Source of the DNA: Verrucomicrobiota bacterium
GTDB lineage: Bacteria; Verrucomicrobiota; Verrucomicrobiia; Methylacidiphilales; Verrucolacustridaceae
Length of the DNA: 64,000 nt
Direction: 5' to 3'
Assembly: GCA_049324635.1 (NCBI GenBank)
Contig: JBMONL010000035.1
Coordinates: 20,584-84,583 of the forward strand
Position numbers and translations under genes: made by a program. Positions 27,669-35,110 of this stretch are shown piece after piece (positions within the stretch are counted from its first letter, which is position 1; every line of letters begins with the position of its first letter). The notes beneath the pieces are model-generated. The model was not told the DNA's origin, did not search any database, and saw only the letters and a list, made by a program, of their open reading frames with translations.

Positions 27669-28103
27669 ATGAAATGGAAGATTTTTACGATTGGTAAACC
27701 TAAACTCTCTTATGCGCGCGCCGGCGCAGAAGAATATTTGGAACGTTTAGGCGAGGCGGTAGAAATCATTTCTCTTAAAGCCAGTCATTCCGAACGCGAA
27801 GCGCTTTTGATGTTGGAGAAAAGCGAGAATGCTTATCGCGTTGCGCTCGATGAAAAAGGAGAACAAATTTCCAGCGCGCAACTCGCGCAAAAAATTCAGC
27901 AATGGGAAAATCAAAATATCAAAACCGTCGCACTCTTTATTGGCGGCGCCGACGGACTTTCCGATATGCTCAAAAATGAATGCGATTGGATGTGGTCATT
28001 GGGTAAACTTACACTTCAACACGAACTCGCGCTGGTTGTGGCGTTGGAGCAAATTTATCGGGCATACGCCATTCAAAAAAACCATCCTTATCATAGAGAA
28101 TAA
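27669..28103 (+). CDS. rlmH: 23S rRNA (pseudouridine1915-N3)-methyltransferase RlmH
   Basis: 144 aa of SPOUT/YbeA family sequence (MKWKIFTIGKPK...FIGGADG...LSLGKLTLQHEL). The stop codon abuts the 3' end of the convergent tRNA-Pro. Confidence 0.85.
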   Translation: MKWKIFTIGKPKLSYARAGAEEYLERLGEAVEIISLKASHSEREALLMLEKSENAYRVALDEKGEQISSAQLAQKIQQWENQNIKTVALFIGGADGLSDMLKNECDWMWSLGKLTLQHELALVVALEQIYRAYAIQKNHPYHRE

Positions 28104-28180
28104 TGGTCGGGCTGCCGGGATTTGAACCCGGGATCTCTTCGTCCCGAACGAAGCGCGATACCAAGCTTCGCTACAGCCCG
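28104..28180 (-). tRNA. tRNA-Pro (anticodon CGG), CCA encoded
   Basis: The reverse complement is CGGGCTGTAGCGAAGCTTGGTATCGCGCTTCGTTCGGGACGAAGAGATCCCGGGTTCAAATCCCGGCAGCCCGACCA. It folds with anticodon stem CTTCG/CGAAG and loop TTCGGGA. Confidence 0.9.
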
Positions 28181-28260
28181 TGTTTTGTGGGAGAAAGAGA
28201 ATATCATTTCTTAGACTTGAGAGCAAGTGATCAAATCAAGTTCTGGTGGTTAACTTTTAA

Positions 28261-28944
28261 TTGAGCGTATGGTATAACTCTATTGTGAATTGGAAACGGA
28301 TATTTAGCACACCTAAAAGGCGCGGAACAATTATTCTAATCGCGCTTGTTTTGTGGCTAGCATTTCCTTTTGTTCAAACATATTACGAACTAGAAATGCG
28401 TGAACGATGGATTGAGTCGAAAGAAAAAATAGACAATGTTTCTTTTGTTGATGATGATGGAAATATTAGACTCATTTCGGATGGTGATACTCCGGCGATT
28501 CCTTTTTTTTATGCGGTTGTCACGGATTTGATCTACTTGCCATTTTTAATTTTCTTTTTTTGGTTTTCGCTAAGAAACTATCAAGGAATTACTCCTTTAT
28601 TTATCGGAGATAAATCGCGGTTATGGAGGAGCATCTTGCTGACCATTCTTTTTGGAGGAATTGCTGCTCTATTATTTTATTGGGCAATTTTTAGATTCAT
28701 CATCAATCGAGTGCCGATTTATGGATTATTTTGGCTGGGTTGGACGTATTTATTTTTGTGTCTTCGAGCTGTTCTAATTTCTCGTCCATTTCGCCTGATG
28801 CCCGTTTACATCTGCGTTCTCTTAATGTTTTTGATCGTGTTATATTGTAGCACAGAAGCCAAAAAAGCCGACGAAGAACGTCGCCAATATAGACGCACCC
28901 ACAACGATTTGGGTAATATTCACGACCAACCCATGCAACAATGA
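28261..28944 (+). CDS. Multi-pass membrane protein, unknown family (candidate immunity protein)
   Basis: 227 aa with about 5 hydrophobic helices. It probably uses a non-ATG start (TTG at 28261 or a downstream GTG). It is low in GC and ends 8 nt from the stop of the convergent ColM-like gene. Confidence 0.6.
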   Translation: MSVWYNSIVNWKRIFSTPKRRGTIILIALVLWLAFPFVQTYYELEMRERWIESKEKIDNVSFVDDDGNIRLISDGDTPAIPFFYAVVTDLIYLPFLIFFFWFSLRNYQGITPLFIGDKSRLWRSILLTILFGGIAALLFYWAIFRFIINRVPIYGLFWLGWTYLFLCLRAVLISRPFRLMPVYICVLLMFLIVLYCSTEAKKADEERRQYRRTHNDLGNIHDQPMQQ

Positions 28945-28952
28945 AGTTGATG

Positions 28953-29339
28953 TCATTCGTTCAAATACTGTGCGCCTCGGATTCTGATTTTATAGGTTTT
29001 TGCTTTCGTGGCTTTTCCAATGACTCGCATAGTAGCGGTTGCAGTTTCATCATCAAGATTTCTAAAATTTGATTTTTCATAATCATTTTCATCCGGCATA
29101 GCGGAAATATATCCGTCATATTTCGGTTTCCCGTCGCTATCGAAATATAGAGTTCCCTGCAGGGACAAAACGATATGCCCTAAATAAGTTTTTCTCCATC
29201 CAGATGTATGAATGCCTATATGCGTATTGTTAAAATCAATTTTTTTTGCACTTGGATTCTGCTTAAGAAATTCTTTTACATCTGGAGAATCGGCGATGTC
29301 TCTACCAGATATTTTTACTTCTTTGATATCAATATCCAA
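28953..29339 (-). CDS. Stand-alone colicin M-like (lipid II-targeting bacteriocin) catalytic-domain homologue
   Basis: 128 aa. A hand alignment to the remembered E. coli colicin M C-terminal domain is gapless over ~45 residues: YLGHIVLSLQGTLYFDSDGKPKYDGYISAMPDENDYEKSNFR vs YLGNITLKTEGTLTISANGSWTYNGVVRSYDDKYDFNASTHR. The C-terminal K.Y.I...G is also shared. Confidence 0.5.
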   Translation of the reverse strand: MDIDIKEVKISGRDIADSPDVKEFLKQNPSAKKIDFNNTHIGIHTSGWRKTYLGHIVLSLQGTLYFDSDGKPKYDGYISAMPDENDYEKSNFRNLDDETATATMRVIGKATKAKTYKIRIRGAQYLNE

Positions 29340-29532
29340 TGGAGAACCTGTTCCTTCTATGTAATGTGCATTTGTCTTTACAGGAGCTAAAACATTATCT
29401 CTTAGCGTGTTCTTTTCCTTTTGGGTCTGGTCATTGCAAAAACGATGGGATTTTCGCTACCATTTTTCAAATGACTCGAGTCTTCTTCCTCTCAATGTCA
29501 ATGTGGCGTTCGGCGGGGAATGTAAAGGGTTG

Positions 29533-30405
29533 TTATCTCAAAAAAGCGTCTTTTTTGCCGGAAATAACCTTCAAGGAAGGAGAAGGTTTTACAGGCGTTG
29601 TTTCTTGAGGCTTTATTTTTTCGATGACCTGCTTCGTTCTCAAATAGGCTTTCTCAATTCTGTCTCTTAATCCCCCTTTAATTTCCCTATCTATAGCGAT
29701 TCTTTTGTCAAAAATTTTCACAAGGTCTTTCTTTCCGATAATTTGCATAACATCTTGAACCACTTGTTCAAAACATTCCGGAGATGCCTCTGTAGAAAAA
29801 GTTTCTATAATTGGAGGTAGCATAAATGCGAAATGATAATTTTCATTTTTTTCTCTTTTTGTTTTTTGGTGATCTTTTTCTAATGGTAAAAAAGGCGCAT
29901 TCCAACCTTTGGTTTTAACCAGTTCTCTTAAGCATGCTTTTGTCCAATCGCGCGCAAATTTTTCGTATGTACTTTGTTCTTGAATACCCTCTAGATTCCG
30001 GGCACGTGCCAAAGCGTATTTCACATTATAATGTAGAGGGACTAAACTTTTGTCTGTATGGTAACTGCCAAAAACAAATGCTTCTCCAAACATTATAGGA
30101 GAACCGTGTTGATAATAATCATGCCCTTGAATCATCGCCGACGCCATAACGCCTAAAAACTCGTCGGATGGAATGATTCCTCGAGAGAGACAAAGACCAA
30201 TGACCGACCCCGGAAAATGTTCAGAAACCGGAATTATTTGTTTCCCTGCTTCCAGTTTACAATATCCTTTGCTAATGGCTTCTTTTTGTAATTCGCAATA
30301 TGCCTTTACATTAGCTTGAGTGACCATAGCTAGTATTTGTGCCTCATCAAAGTAAACTCGATTGTTTACATACCTAATGTTCATAAATACAAATGTGCCG
30401 TTCAT
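29533..30405 (-). CDS. Hypothetical protein (290 aa), no recognisable motif
   Basis: A long ORF in the low-GC islet, upstream of and co-directional with the ColM-like gene (193-nt gap). It has a Lys-rich C-terminal third. Confidence 0.55.
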   Translation of the reverse strand: MNGTFVFMNIRYVNNRVYFDEAQILAMVTQANVKAYCELQKEAISKGYCKLEAGKQIIPVSEHFPGSVIGLCLSRGIIPSDEFLGVMASAMIQGHDYYQHGSPIMFGEAFVFGSYHTDKSLVPLHYNVKYALARARNLEGIQEQSTYEKFARDWTKACLRELVKTKGWNAPFLPLEKDHQKTKREKNENYHFAFMLPPIIETFSTEASPECFEQVVQDVMQIIGKKDLVKIFDKRIAIDREIKGGLRDRIEKAYLRTKQVIEKIKPQETTPVKPSPSLKVISGKKDAFLR

Positions 30406-30574
30406 TCAGAAAGGTCAAATTTTGGGTAGCATGGAGGGGCAAAATGGCACATTAGGAATGTGAGGGGTGAGCTTTTTTGGCGCAGGAAGCGTGGAGCGAT
30501 TTTTGTAACCCATTGATTATAAGCGATCAAAAAACATCGTTGAGATGGCACATTGATTGCATAGGAGATTTTAT

Positions 30575-32512
30575 ATGGCAAAAGTTTTAGGCATTGATTT
30601 AGGAACGACGAATTCATGTATGGCTATTATGGAAGGTGGCCGTCCCGTTGTTTTAGAAAACTCTGAGGGCGGGCGCACGACTCCTTCCATTGTTGCGTTC
30701 ACAAAAAACGGCGAGCGGCTCGTGGGGCAGGCGGCGAAGCGTCAGGCGGTGACTAATTCGCGCAATACGGTTTTTTCGGTGAAGCGGCTCATGGGGCGCA
30801 AATTTGCCGAAGTTCAGGAAGAAATTAAGCGTTTGCCTTATGCGGTTGTCGAAGCCAAGAACGGCGACGCGCATGTGCAAGTGGAAATGAATGGCGAGAA
30901 GCAAACATTTTCGCCGGAGGAAATTTCTTCGTTTATTTTGTCGAAATTGCGAGCGGACGCCGAAGCGAAGTTGGGCGAAAAAATCACGCAGGCGGTGATT
31001 ACAGTGCCGGCGTATTTTAACGACAGCCAACGTCATGCGACCAAAGACGCGGGCAGAATCGCAGGACTGGAAGTGTTGCGCATTATTAATGAGCCGACGG
31101 CGGCTTCGCTGGCATATGGTTTGGACAAAAAGAAGGATGAAAAAATCGCCGTGTACGATTTGGGCGGCGGCACGTTTGATATTTCGATTTTGGAAATCGG
31201 CGACGGAGTTTTTGAAGTGCGCGCGACCAATGGCGACACGCATTTGGGCGGCGACGACTGGGATTCGGCGATCATGGAGATGATTATCGGGCAATTTAAG
31301 AGCGATTCCGGGATTGATTTGCACGGACAACCCGACGCGATGCAGAGAATTAAAGAAGAAGCGGAAAAAGCAAAAATCGCGCTGTCTTCGGCGATGGAAT
31401 ACGACATCAATTTGCCGTTTATTACCGCAGATCAGAGCGGACCGAAACATATTCAGTTGAAAATTTCGCGTTCGAAGATGGAGCAAATTTGCGATCAGTT
31501 GTTTCAAAGAACGATTGAGCCGGTCAAAAATTGCATTCGCGACGCGAAGTTGAGCACGGGCGAAATCGACGAACTGGTGCTTGTCGGCGGCATGACCAGA
31601 ATGCCGAAGGTGATTGAAACCGCGCATGGTTTGGTGAATAAAGAACCGCACAAGGGCGTGAATCCGGATGAAGTGGTGGCGGTGGGCGCGGCGATTCAAG
31701 GCGGCGTGCTTAAGGGCGATGTTCAAGATATTCTTTTGCTCGACGTGACGCCGCTCACGCTCGCGATTGAAACCGCGGGCGGCGTGGCGACTCCGATGAT
31801 TCCGCGCAATACAACGATTCCGACGAAAAAAACGCAAATTTTCAGCACGTATTCGGATAATCAACCCGGTGTGGAAATCAAAGCGCTTCAGGGCGAGCGT
31901 CCGCTTTCGCGCGACAATAAACTTTTAGGAAATTTCCATCTCGATGGCATTCCTCCGGCGCCGCGCGGCGTGCCGCAGATTGAAGTGACTTTTGATATTG
32001 ATGCGAATGGAATTTTGCACATTTCGGCGAAAGATTTGGGCACCGGACGCGAACAAAAAATTTCGATTACCGGCTCGAGCGGGCTTTCGAAGGATGAGGT
32101 TGAAAAACTCACCAAGGAAGCGGAGTTGCACGCGGAGGAAGACAAAAAATCGCGCGAAAAAATTGAGATTCGCAATATGGGCGATTCCACGGCGTACGCG
32201 GCGGAAAAAATGCTTCGCGAATACGCTGACAAAGTCAATGACGCGAAGAAAAAAGAAATCGAAAAGGCGATTGAGAAAGTTCGCGAGGAACTCAAAGCCG
32301 ACGACGCCGATAAAATCAAGGCGGCAACGGAAGAATTGAATAAATTGATTCAGGAAGTCTCGACGGAAATGTACCGCGCGGCTTCGGAAAAATCTTCACA
32401 AACAAGTGACGCGGCGCAGAACACAGAGTCCGCCTCCAAACCCACGGAGGAAAAAAAGGATGACGTGATCGACGCCGATTACGAAATGGTTGATAAGGAC
32501 AAGGACAAATAA
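30575..32512 (+). CDS. dnaK: Chaperone DnaK (Hsp70)
   Basis: [17 protein letters not shown]..., DLGGGTFD, and an acidic C-terminal tail. GGAG lies 7 nt upstream of the ATG at 30575. Confidence 0.97.
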
Positions 32513-32595
32513 AAGTTCGGCAACCAGCGCGCGCTTTTAGCAAGCGAGCGTGTGTCCGTGAACAATATAAACCCCAAATAAGGAGAATATATATT

Positions 32596-32892
32596 ATGGC
32601 AAACCCAGGCATTAAGCCTCTCAACGACCGGGTGCTCGTGCAACCGCTCGAAGAGAAGGAAACCAAAAAAGGCGGCATCATTATACCCGATTCCGCAAAA
32701 GAGAAACCACAGGAAGGCAAAGTGCTCGCCGTCGGCGACGGTCGCGTCGATGAGAGCGGCAAGCGCATAGCGCTTTCCGTGAAAAAAGGCGATCGCGTGC
32801 TCTATAGCAAATATGGCGGCACCGAAATCACCATTGAAGACGAAAAATACATGATCATGCGCGAAGACGACATTCTCGGCGTGATGGAATAA
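32596..32892 (+). CDS. groES: Co-chaperonin GroES
   Basis: 98 aa: [42 protein letters not shown]. Confidence 0.97.
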
Positions 32893-32907
32893 AGAAGGAG
32901 AAAAATT

Positions 32908-34539
32908 ATGTCAGCAAAACAACTTTTATTTGATCAGGAAGCCCGTCAGAAAATTCTGATCGGCGTGGAAAAATTGGCTAAGACCGTAAAAGCGACTCTC
33001 GGGCCTGCAGGACGCAACGTCGTTCTCGATAAAAAATTCGGAAGCCCGACGATTACTAAAGACGGCGTGACCGTGGCGAAAGAAATTGAACTGGAAGACC
33101 CGTTTGAAAATATCGGAGCGCAACTCGTTCGCGAAGTCGCCAGCAAAACCAGCGACGTCGCCGGCGACGGCACAACGACCGCGACGGTTCTTGCGGAAGC
33201 CATCTACAAAGAAGGCTTGAAGAACGTCACCGCGGGCGCGAATCCGATGGATTTGAAACGCGGCATCGACAAAGCAGTCGAGGCGATTGTCGAAGAACTC
33301 GGCAAGATCAGCAAAAAAGTCAAAGATAAGGAAGAGATCAAGCAAGTCGCAACCGTTTCCGCCAACTGGGATCACACCATTGGCGAAATCATTGCCGATG
33401 CGCTCGACAAAGTCGGCAAAGACGGCACCGTGACAGTCGAAGAAGCAAAAACCATTGAGACGACACTCGAAGTTGTCGAAGGTATGCAATTCGACAAAGG
33501 CTATATTTCGCCTTACTTCGTGACCAATGCCGAAGACCAAGACGCTATTTTGGAAAACGCGTACATTCTCATCAACGAAAAGAAAATTTCAAATCTGAAA
33601 GACATGCTTCCGTTGTTGGAAAAAGTTGCGAAATCCGGCAAGCCGCTGTTGATCATCGCCGAAGACGTGGAAGGCGAAGCGCTCGCCACGCTGGTGGTGA
33701 ATAAATTGCGCGGCACGCTCCAAGTGTGCGCCGTCAAGGCGCCCGGATTCGGCGATCGCAGAAAAGCGATGCTCGAAGACATTGCCGTCCTCACCGGCGG
33801 TCAGATGCTCAGCGAAGACCTCGGCGTGAAGTTGGAAAATGTCCAACTCGACGACCTCGGCAAAGCCAAACGCATCGTCATCGACAAAGAAAATACGACG
33901 ATTATCGAAGGCGCGGGCAAAAATAGCGACATTCAAGGCAGAATTGCTCAAATCAAAAAGCAAATCGACGATACCACCAGCGATTATGATCGCGAGAAGC
34001 TCCAAGAGCGCCTCGCCAAACTCGCAGGCGGTGTGGCTGTCATCAATGTCGGCGCCGCGACCGAAACCGAATTGAAGGAAAAGAAGGCTCGCGTCGAAGA
34101 CGCTCTGCACGCCACGCGCGCGGCTGTCGAAGAAGGCATCGTCGCCGGAGGCGGCGTCGCTCTGATTCGCGGACAAAAAGCGATTGAGGAATTGAAACTC
34201 AAAGGCGACGAAAAAATCGGCGCTCAGATTGTCTATCGCGCGATCGAAATGCCCTTGCGCACATTGGCGGACAACGCCGGCGTAGAAGGCAGTATCGTTG
34301 TGCAAGATGTAAAATCCAAAAAAGGCGCTGAAGGTTACAACGTAGCCACGGGCGAATACGTCGACTTAATCAAAGCCGGCGTGGTCGATCCCACCAAAGT
34401 CACGCGTAGCGCGCTTCAGAATTCTGCATCCATCGCCGGATTGCTTCTCACCACCGAAGCCATTGTGGCGGAAATTCCCGAAAAGGAAAAATCCGCTCCG
34501 ATGCCTCACGGCGGCGGCATGGGCGGAATGGATTACTAA
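32908..34539 (+). CDS. groEL: Chaperonin GroEL
   Basis: 543 aa with [12 protein letters not shown] and a C-terminal GGMGGM tail. Confidence 0.97.
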
Positions 34540-34566
34540 TCCGCGACTCAAAATCGCAAACCAACC

Positions 34567-34598
34567 AAGGGCGGACGCAAGTCCGCCCTTGTTATTAT
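34567..34598 (+). terminator. groESL terminator hairpin
   Basis: AAGGGCGGAC-gcaa-GTCCGCCCTT followed by GTTATTAT. It lies 28 nt after the stop codon. Confidence 0.7.
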
Positions 34599-34649
34599 CC
34601 ACAAAAGTTTCATGAGCAACTACACAAAAATGAAAAGCGAAAGCTAAAA

Positions 34650-35110
34650 TTCCTCTCCCCGCTGCAAGCAGGCGGGGTATCACGGAATTTTTCGCTTCGC
34701 GAATCGCTTTCGCTCTTTCATTGCGAGCCGTCGCGACTTGGTCGCACGGCGTGGCAATCTATCTTTATTCTGTGCATGGCCTTCTTTTGCGCGATTCATC
34801 CCCGATGCAAGCATCGAGGTATTCTCGCGTCACAAGATAAATCGACAAACCTCGCTGTCGTTTCAATGATGGTCGAGCGAAGCGAGGTTATCTACTTCTA
34901 CTTTATCACATCGGTGTCATTGCGAGGAATCTCGCGCTTTGCGCGAATGACGCGGCAACCTTCACGCGATAAATTTTTCGCAACGGTTTGAATTCACGCC
35001 GTTTTTGTGCAAGATTTTTTGTGGAAAAATTAACTCAAAAGATTATTTTAATCCGTGAAGGTTGCTTCGTTGCGCGCTCAACACTCGCGCGCGCCTCGCA
35101 ATGACACGTT
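34650..35110. repeat. Cluster of short dispersed repeats/hairpins (GTGTCATTGCGAGG family and CCCCG.TGCAAGCA..GGGGTAT hairpins)
   Basis: 34914-34967 and 35054-35107 are inverted copies (GTGTCATTGCGAGG-N~30-GCAACCTTCACG). A related copy lies at ~34718-34760. Related hairpins lie at 34656-34680 and 34797-34822. Confidence 0.75.

Follow-up and report, generated by a model that had tools for sequence, protein, structure and literature searches.

The locus examined here raises the question of whether a short open reading frame (ORF) in a Verrucomicrobiota genome encodes a minimal, stand-alone toxin of the colicin M (ColM) family. The ORF lies on the minus strand of a 64,000-nucleotide stretch of DNA (hereafter, the window; Table 1). 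According to the original prediction, its 128-aa product corresponds in size to roughly the catalytic domain of ColM and might represent a new delivery-independent or two-component form of a lipid II-degrading toxin. Below, we address the homology and extent of the encoded domain, the start of the gene, its membrane-protein partner, and the competing explanations of the locus.

Table 1 Features of the ColM-like locus and of the paralogous module of the same genome (window coordinates unless a contig is named)
Feature	Coordinates	Strand	Remarks
tRNA-Pro(CGG)	28104..28180	minus	Left edge of the low-GC islet
227-aa integral membrane protein, candidate immunity protein	28261..28944	plus	About 5 hydrophobic helices, 4 of them conserved (hydropathy)
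Open frame with ColM-type catalytic domain	28953..29456	minus	167 codons and stop; domain ~28971-29435
128-aa ORF	28953..29339	minus	TTG start; ~ColM 144-271, without the first domain helix
Active-site motif D-E-N-D-Y-E-K-S-N-F-R	29061..29093	minus	Counterpart of ColM D226-K-Y-D-F-N-A-S-T-H-R236
AxxH(Y/F/W)..G.G motif, first domain helix	29343..29381	minus	Encodes VKTNAHYIEGTGS; 5' of the TTG
Short out-of-frame ORF, MTRPKRKRTR and stop	29402..29434	minus	ATG-ACC-AGA-CCC-AAA-AGG..., 10 codons; one base off the ColM frame
290-aa orphan ORF	29533..30405	minus	Frame differs from that of ColM; Pro-rich C-terminal tail (KPQETTPVKPSPS)
ColM-like paralogue ACOY3I_04705	L084 256-1140	plus	294 aa in the Logan call, 254 aa in NCBI; apparently intact
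Convergent partner of ACOY3I_04705	L084 1160-1666	minus	168 aa, four hydrophobic helices

Homology and extent of the ColM-type domain

The similarity of the ORF to the ColM family is real and far above chance. The 128-aa product scores 49.9 bits (E = 3.2e-13) with the Pfam Colicin_M profile (PF14859), whose curated gathering cut-off is 27 bits, and its aa 31-123 are matched to profile positions 180-272 out of 281; there is a match to a PHROG family, too (E = 3e-17), and a phmmer comparison of the ORF with PDB sequences retrieves colicin M chains (E = 3e-5). The alignment to colicin M that had been proposed is reproduced by HMMER, including the 4-residue insertion before AKTYKIRIRG, and the proposed lack of a signal peptide agrees with the lack of any hydrophobic signal-like segment.

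The domain, however, is longer than the ORF. Upstream of the TTG codon, the ColM frame remains open for 39 further codons, back to a TAG at 29457-29459, and the stretch in between encodes ...NVLAPVKTNAHYIEGTGSP, followed by the TTG. When the 167-aa translation (28956-29456) is used as the query, the Pfam match rises to 65.3 bits (E = 6.4e-18; aa 8-162 against profile positions 118-272), and phmmer produces matches to ColM, PaeM, pectocins M1 and M2, and syringacin M, with residues 17-164 pairing with ColM 121-264 and AHYIEGTGSP standing opposite ColM AHYLWGNGAE. The homology to ColM reaches 23-32 codons 5' of the TTG, in frame, and 13 of the 15 homologues compared by tblastn align beyond 29339, the furthest to 29423. 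This upstream portion contains the A-x-x-H-(Y/F/W)..G.G motif, which is kept in ColM (ALAHYLWGNGA) and in most of the recovered homologues. Given that truncation experiments place the minimal active ColM domain at residues 122-271 (reviewed in PMC8469651) and that the homology extends upstream of the TTG, the 128-aa ORF is a truncated call of a longer domain, and its apparent correspondence in size to the ColM catalytic domain does not hold.

The predicted structure points to the same family. The AlphaFold2 model of the 167-aa translation, built from a 14-sequence alignment, has a mean pLDDT of 81.6 and a pTM of 0.70, and includes a helix (residues 25-34) that is encoded wholly 5' of the TTG, which corresponds to residue 40. 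A Foldseek search of the PDB with this model yielded 14 significant matches (E 2e-8 to 8e-6), all to ColM-family bacteriocins, namely, pectocins M1 and M2, PaeM, syringacin M, and colicin M, with about 150 aligned columns, a probability of 1.00, TMq of 0.50-0.61, and ~22-27% sequence identity to the solved structures; the next match had E = 0.34. Thus, by profile, sequence, and predicted fold, the ORF is a member of the ColM domain family, as had been proposed.

The active site is diverged, as had also been suspected. The signature of ColM is DxYDx5HR, and each of the substitutions D226A, Y228A, D229A, H235A, and R236A leaves less than 2% of the activity and abolishes killing (PMC8469651, PMC5821083). 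The window motif has the form DxNDx5FR, that is, three of the five essential residues are retained (the equivalents of D226, D229, and R236) and two are substituted (Tyr228 by Asn and His235 by Phe), and the alignment bears out these residue calls of the original prediction. The three retained residues (D122, D125, and R132 in the 167-aa frame) are invariant across the alignment. Of the 18 aligned sequences, only the window protein has Asn in place of Tyr228; the Phe that replaces His235 is found also in P0015 and P0006, and three other sequences have a deletion there. Because further members of the family (P0015, P0006, P0002, P0010, and P0016) lack His235 as well, the loss of this His alone is no proof of inactivity. 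Judging from the motif, catalytic activity of the ORF product appears doubtful.

The start of the toxin frame

No in-frame ATG, GTG, TTG, CTG, ATT, or ATC codon is present between the TAG at 29457-29459 and the TTG at 29339. The sole start-like codon in frame upstream of the TTG is an ATA at 29360, already past the conserved His-Tyr. The complete minimal domain is therefore untranslatable from any canonical start, the only one available being the TTG that yields the truncated form, and this result, together with the absence of the first 23-32 domain residues from that form, runs counter to the idea of a new delivery-independent or two-component minimal toxin. An AAGGA sequence is located 17 nt upstream of the TTG, a greater distance than the -12/-13 found at the dnaK, groEL, and HDOD genes, and a truncated product may be made from this codon.

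The nearest ATG, at 29434, opens the short out-of-frame ORF. This ORF contains an A4 run at 29419-29422, and when one A is added to the run in silico, a clean 160-aa ORF that starts with the ATG is obtained (MTRPKKEKNTLRDNVLAPVKTNAHY...). No Shine-Dalgarno (SD)-like motif precedes this ATG. Programmed frameshifting from the ATG was considered and judged unlikely because no slippery heptamer occurs in register and the A-run does not exceed 4 nt. By a codon log-odds score that was trained on the low-GC genes of the module, the ColM frame is positive from ~29440, and no frame is positive from ~29530 to 29441.

An independent Logan assembly (run SRR32167788) is 100% identical to the window over 6556 bp (28103-34658), so that an isolated assembly error does not account for the absent start. 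In NCBI, the membrane protein has the locus tag ACOY3I_03810 (MFZ5806316.1) and the 290-aa ORF has the tag ACOY3I_03820 (MFZ5806317.1): the protein accessions are consecutive, yet the tag ACOY3I_03815 is skipped. The 128-aa protein is a Logan gene call only and has no NCBI protein entry. An RNA gene as the cause of the skipped tag was rejected, as an Rfam scan found none at this position. The simplest reading of the numbering is that PGAP treated the ColM-like ORF as a pseudogene.

The chance of a 167-codon frame without an internal stop in DNA of 38% GC is estimated at ~1e-5, which implies that either the inactivation is recent or the gene is somehow still expressed. Our searches produced no close relative with an intact start that would show the ancestral state, and a genome scan with the 167-aa toxin gave no match.

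The membrane-protein partner and the genomic setting

The gene for the 227-aa integral membrane protein is arranged tail to tail with the toxin frame, the two stop codons being 9 nt apart. The protein has no match in Pfam, NCBIfam, PHROG, or PADLOC, and a homologue search with it recovered only the protein itself. A counterpart is nevertheless encoded in the same MAG, on another contig (L084). There, one of the 20 hits of the exhaustive search for relatives of the toxin domain (P0006, ACOY3I_04705) is likewise adjoined by a convergent membrane-protein gene, whose 168-aa product shows 36% identity to the 227-aa protein over 165 aa (E = 3e-29); the toxin domains of the two loci are 32% identical. 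Two diverged toxins, each accompanied by a homologous, diverged partner in the same position, present the pattern expected of toxin-immunity pairs. A metagenome scan with the two-member alignment (227/168 aa) found no relatives.

Multi-pass immunity proteins are known for the ColM family, including PmiA with 4, BmiA with 3, and PmiC with 6 transmembrane helices (PMC5821083, PMC5277000), and the PmiC gene is located downstream of its toxin gene, on the opposite strand (PMC5821083). Compared on the basis of their descriptions only, the 227-aa protein resembles all three in being multi-pass and toxin-adjacent, and PmiC also in its position downstream on the opposite strand; it differs from them in belonging to no Pfam family and having no relatives in our searches beyond the paralogous partner. 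Even within a single genome, the two copies of the membrane partner are poorly conserved in sequence (the 36% above). By analogy with these systems, the 227-aa protein is likely to be an immunity protein, and the window locus would then be a toxin-immunity module of the known PmiA/PmiC type.

Several details of the two modules deserve mention. The NCBI call of the window membrane protein is 182 aa long, starts at an internal ATG, and drops the conserved first helix. The 227-aa form initiated at TTG is more likely to be correct, because the alignment with the partner starts at residue 12 of this form and takes in the first transmembrane helix. A terminator-like hairpin with a T-run is present at 28869-28883 on the minus strand, ~70 nt past the ColM stop and inside the 3' end of the membrane-protein gene; overall, the promoter and terminator scan gave counts at the chance level. 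The ACOY3I_04705 toxin scores 18.8 bits, under the Pfam cut-off, and its motif contains an insertion of 5-6 residues (DDVYDFNLTNAEGEVFRN); the N-terminal ~150 residues begin with MAHWVTINGNHVLIDDD and continue with a poly-acidic run, and no known domain is matched by this region. A tRNA D-arm-like sequence (TAGCTCAGTGGTAGAGC) is found at both ends (1-25 and 2010-2028) of the 2-kb contig L084, and ARAGORN detects no complete tRNA on it; the paralogous module may also lie beside tRNA genes, like the window module beside tRNA-Pro.

The ColM gene resides in a low-GC islet of ~2.3 kb (~28200-30500), with a GC content of 0.35-0.40 compared to ~0.50 in the flanks, between tRNA-Pro(CGG) and dnaK. The encoded DnaK is at most 75% identical to those of Chthoniobacterales and Spartobacteria MAGs, and none of the 80 related dnaK loci contains the islet genes, or rlmH nearby. 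The low GC content and the absence of the islet genes from these loci suggest that the islet was horizontally acquired. At its ends, the search for att-like repeats detected chance-level repeats only. PADLOC and NCBIfam produced no match for the islet proteins; the other window ORFs that were scanned are housekeeping genes, with no Rhs, type VI secretion system (T6SS), or phage functions among them. As for dnaK itself, the mechanically called ORF starts at TTG 30557; the ATG at 30575 is more likely to be the start, because AGGAG is found 12 nt before it and the alignment to the profile sets in at residue 7.

Relatives and competing explanations of the locus

The exhaustive search yielded nearest relatives that are 28-40% identical to the window domain and fall into three groups: Rhs proteins with a C-terminal ColM tip and DPxGL junctions (P0002, P0005, P0007, P0008, P0012, P0018, and P0019); classic ColM-like bacteriocins of ~270 aa; and a few short proteins, mostly on contigs of 1-2 kb, most of which may be fragments. 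Three hits (P0003, P0011, and P0020), repeat-rich proteins that matched over short repeated stretches, were treated as spurious. The Rhs tips P0005, P0007, P0008, P0012, and P0019 share a short common tail that follows the ColM domain and ends in K-K-x-W-R-x-Y or similar; this type of tail is missing in the window protein and in the classic bacteriocins. A further contig, L082 (30 kb), contains two 175-aa ColM-domain genes that start with ATG and are each followed by a gene for a ~200-aa single-anchor protein, a third copy of which is encoded upstream; these partners bear no relation to the 227-aa protein. ColM domains are thus encoded by stand-alone genes in nature, and this is no peculiarity of the window.

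The window gene shares a homologous catalytic domain with colicin M, pyocin M/PaeM, syringacin M, pectocins M1 and M2, and the burkhocins and, as in the ColM systems with cmi and pmiC, is adjoined by a convergent membrane-protein gene (PMC5821083). It differs from these bacteriocins in that it has no N-terminal translocation or receptor region and no TonB box, is found in Verrucomicrobiota as opposed to gamma- and beta-proteobacteria, carries DxNDx5FR in place of DxYDx5HR, and has a domain without a start codon. In sequence, it is closest to the Rhs tips and the L082 stand-alone genes. Unlike in the Rhs proteins, there is no Rhs core upstream here, nor a DPxGL junction or a parent toxin gene in any frame, and when the seven Rhs-ColM homologues were used as tblastn queries, only the ColM domain of the window was matched. 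The presence of such a domain outside modular bacteriocins is not in itself new: besides the Rhs tips and the ~175-aa genes, ColM is already regarded as a polymorphic toxin module (PMC5821083), DUF3289 is a ColM-fold, T6SS-associated family whose immunity protein is DUF943 (PMC11148199), and ColM-fold domains occur in further polymorphic toxin architectures (PMC12419801).

The explanation that we consider best, with a probability of roughly 60%, is that the locus is a recently inactivated ColM toxin gene with its immunity gene retained. It would represent a small, low-GC, horizontally acquired ColM-family toxin-immunity module, in which a ColM-type domain of ~150 residues, whose characterised relatives cleave the peptidoglycan precursor lipid II at the periplasmic face of the inner membrane, would be paired with a convergent multi-pass inner-membrane protein that protects the producer by analogy with PmiA, BmiA, and PmiC. 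The start of the toxin gene would have been lost, and deletion of a single A from the A-run would explain why the ATG at 29434 is one base off. A locus that provides only immunity could still guard against related toxins of neighbouring cells. Degenerate toxin modules with retained immunity genes are a general pattern in bacteriocin, CDI, and Rhs loci. The window locus resembles such orphan modules in having a start-less toxin sequence beside an intact cognate immunity-type gene; it differs from the orphan cassettes of arrays in that no full-length parent toxin gene is present upstream, so it is not a displaced cassette.

Could the toxin still be made? A functional stand-alone protein of ~160 aa translated from the ATG at 29434 would imply an A5 allele in the population, a 1-nt consensus error, or a ribosomal frameshift within ATG-ACC-AGA-CCC-AAA-AGG. 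That a single added A gives a clean ATG-initiated ORF, that the frame is fully open and coding-like from ~29440, and that the L082 genes of ~175 aa have their own ATG and adjacent partners are all consistent with this possibility, and the intact, conserved immunity-like gene argues for a module in use. We regard it as unlikely, all the same, because the two assemblies agree exactly, slippage typically needs a longer run than A4 and no heptamer of the form X XXY YYZ occurs in register, the ATG lacks an SD-like motif, the Tyr228 and His235 equivalents are substituted, and there is apparently no NCBI protein call at this position. That the 128-aa product of the TTG is itself a functional minimal ColM-like toxin, as the original prediction had it, is very improbable. 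This form lacks the conserved first helix and ~22 residues of the minimal active domain 122-271 (PMC8469651), two essential residues are substituted, and the in-frame sequence upstream is clearly homologous to the family, which is unexpected for an untranslated leader; set against this are the selection of the ORF by a gene caller, the AAGGA upstream of the TTG, and the retained equivalents of D226, D229, and R236.

A quite unlikely alternative involves the upstream 290-aa ORF, which together with the ColM domain would be the remains of a broken modular bacteriocin or would encode a separate delivery partner. The parent postulated under the first variant would have been ~450-480 aa long and have consisted of an N-terminal uptake region, a Pro-rich linker, and the toxin domain. 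The two ORFs are located on the same strand, 75-190 nt apart, within the same low-GC islet; the tail of the 290-aa protein is linker-like, and P, S, N, and T are likewise abundant in the open stretch that comes next in the ColM frame (DNNPLHSPPNATLT); the intact paralogue, moreover, carries ~150 additional N-terminal residues ahead of its ColM domain. Fusion of the two by a single frameshift was rejected as impossible, because stop codons are present in all three frames between 29533 and 29457, so that at least two lesions would be needed, and no frame is coding-like from ~29530 to 29441. Upstream of the ColM domain, no more than 11 codons are open, and no N-terminal translocation (TonB box) or receptor-binding region fused to the domain was found at the locus. 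A search of 5.8 billion proteins with the 290-aa ORF returned only itself, with no family match, and comparisons with the N-termini of ColM proteins and the N-terminal 150 residues of the paralogue showed no similarity. The single-sequence AlphaFold2 model of the ORF (pLDDT 52.9) is unusable, and a fold search with it produced no match below E = 0.1. A link between the 290-aa ORF and the toxin is thus speculation, and the two-component form of the original prediction finds nothing here that would tie this ORF to delivery.

With the inactivated module as the preferred reading, the window ColM gene opens no new mechanism. It serves as a cautionary case, in which a mechanically called ORF seemed to be a 'minimal' toxin only because the gene start was lost. 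At the same time, the analysis places ColM-type modules, the presumptive target of which is lipid II, in Verrucomicrobiota, where a single genome carries two diverged copies; the literature consulted describes ColM modules mainly in gamma- and beta-proteobacteria. It also indicates that the multi-pass membrane partners make up a family not named before, in line with the ColM pattern of many unrelated immunity proteins having been recruited.

We see a small chance that the stand-alone ColM proteins of ~160-175 aa, which lack signal peptides and uptake domains, constitute a class of minimal lipid II toxins that has yet to be described. Their export or delivery would follow a novel route, in which the 290-aa protein might be a partner at the present locus, and they would be guarded against by a new Verrucomicrobiota-specific immunity family with 4-5 transmembrane helices. 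Candidates for such a class are the window gene, provided that an in-frame allele is expressed, and the tandem L082 pairs. The latter form tandem cassettes at L082 3951-6026 and 9114-10237, with three copies of the partner, which carries an N-terminal anchor, and two of the toxin, and a ParE/RelB pair lies between the cassettes. The two L082 toxins are 79% identical overall; by eye, their N-termini are nearly identical and their C-terminal halves are diverged.
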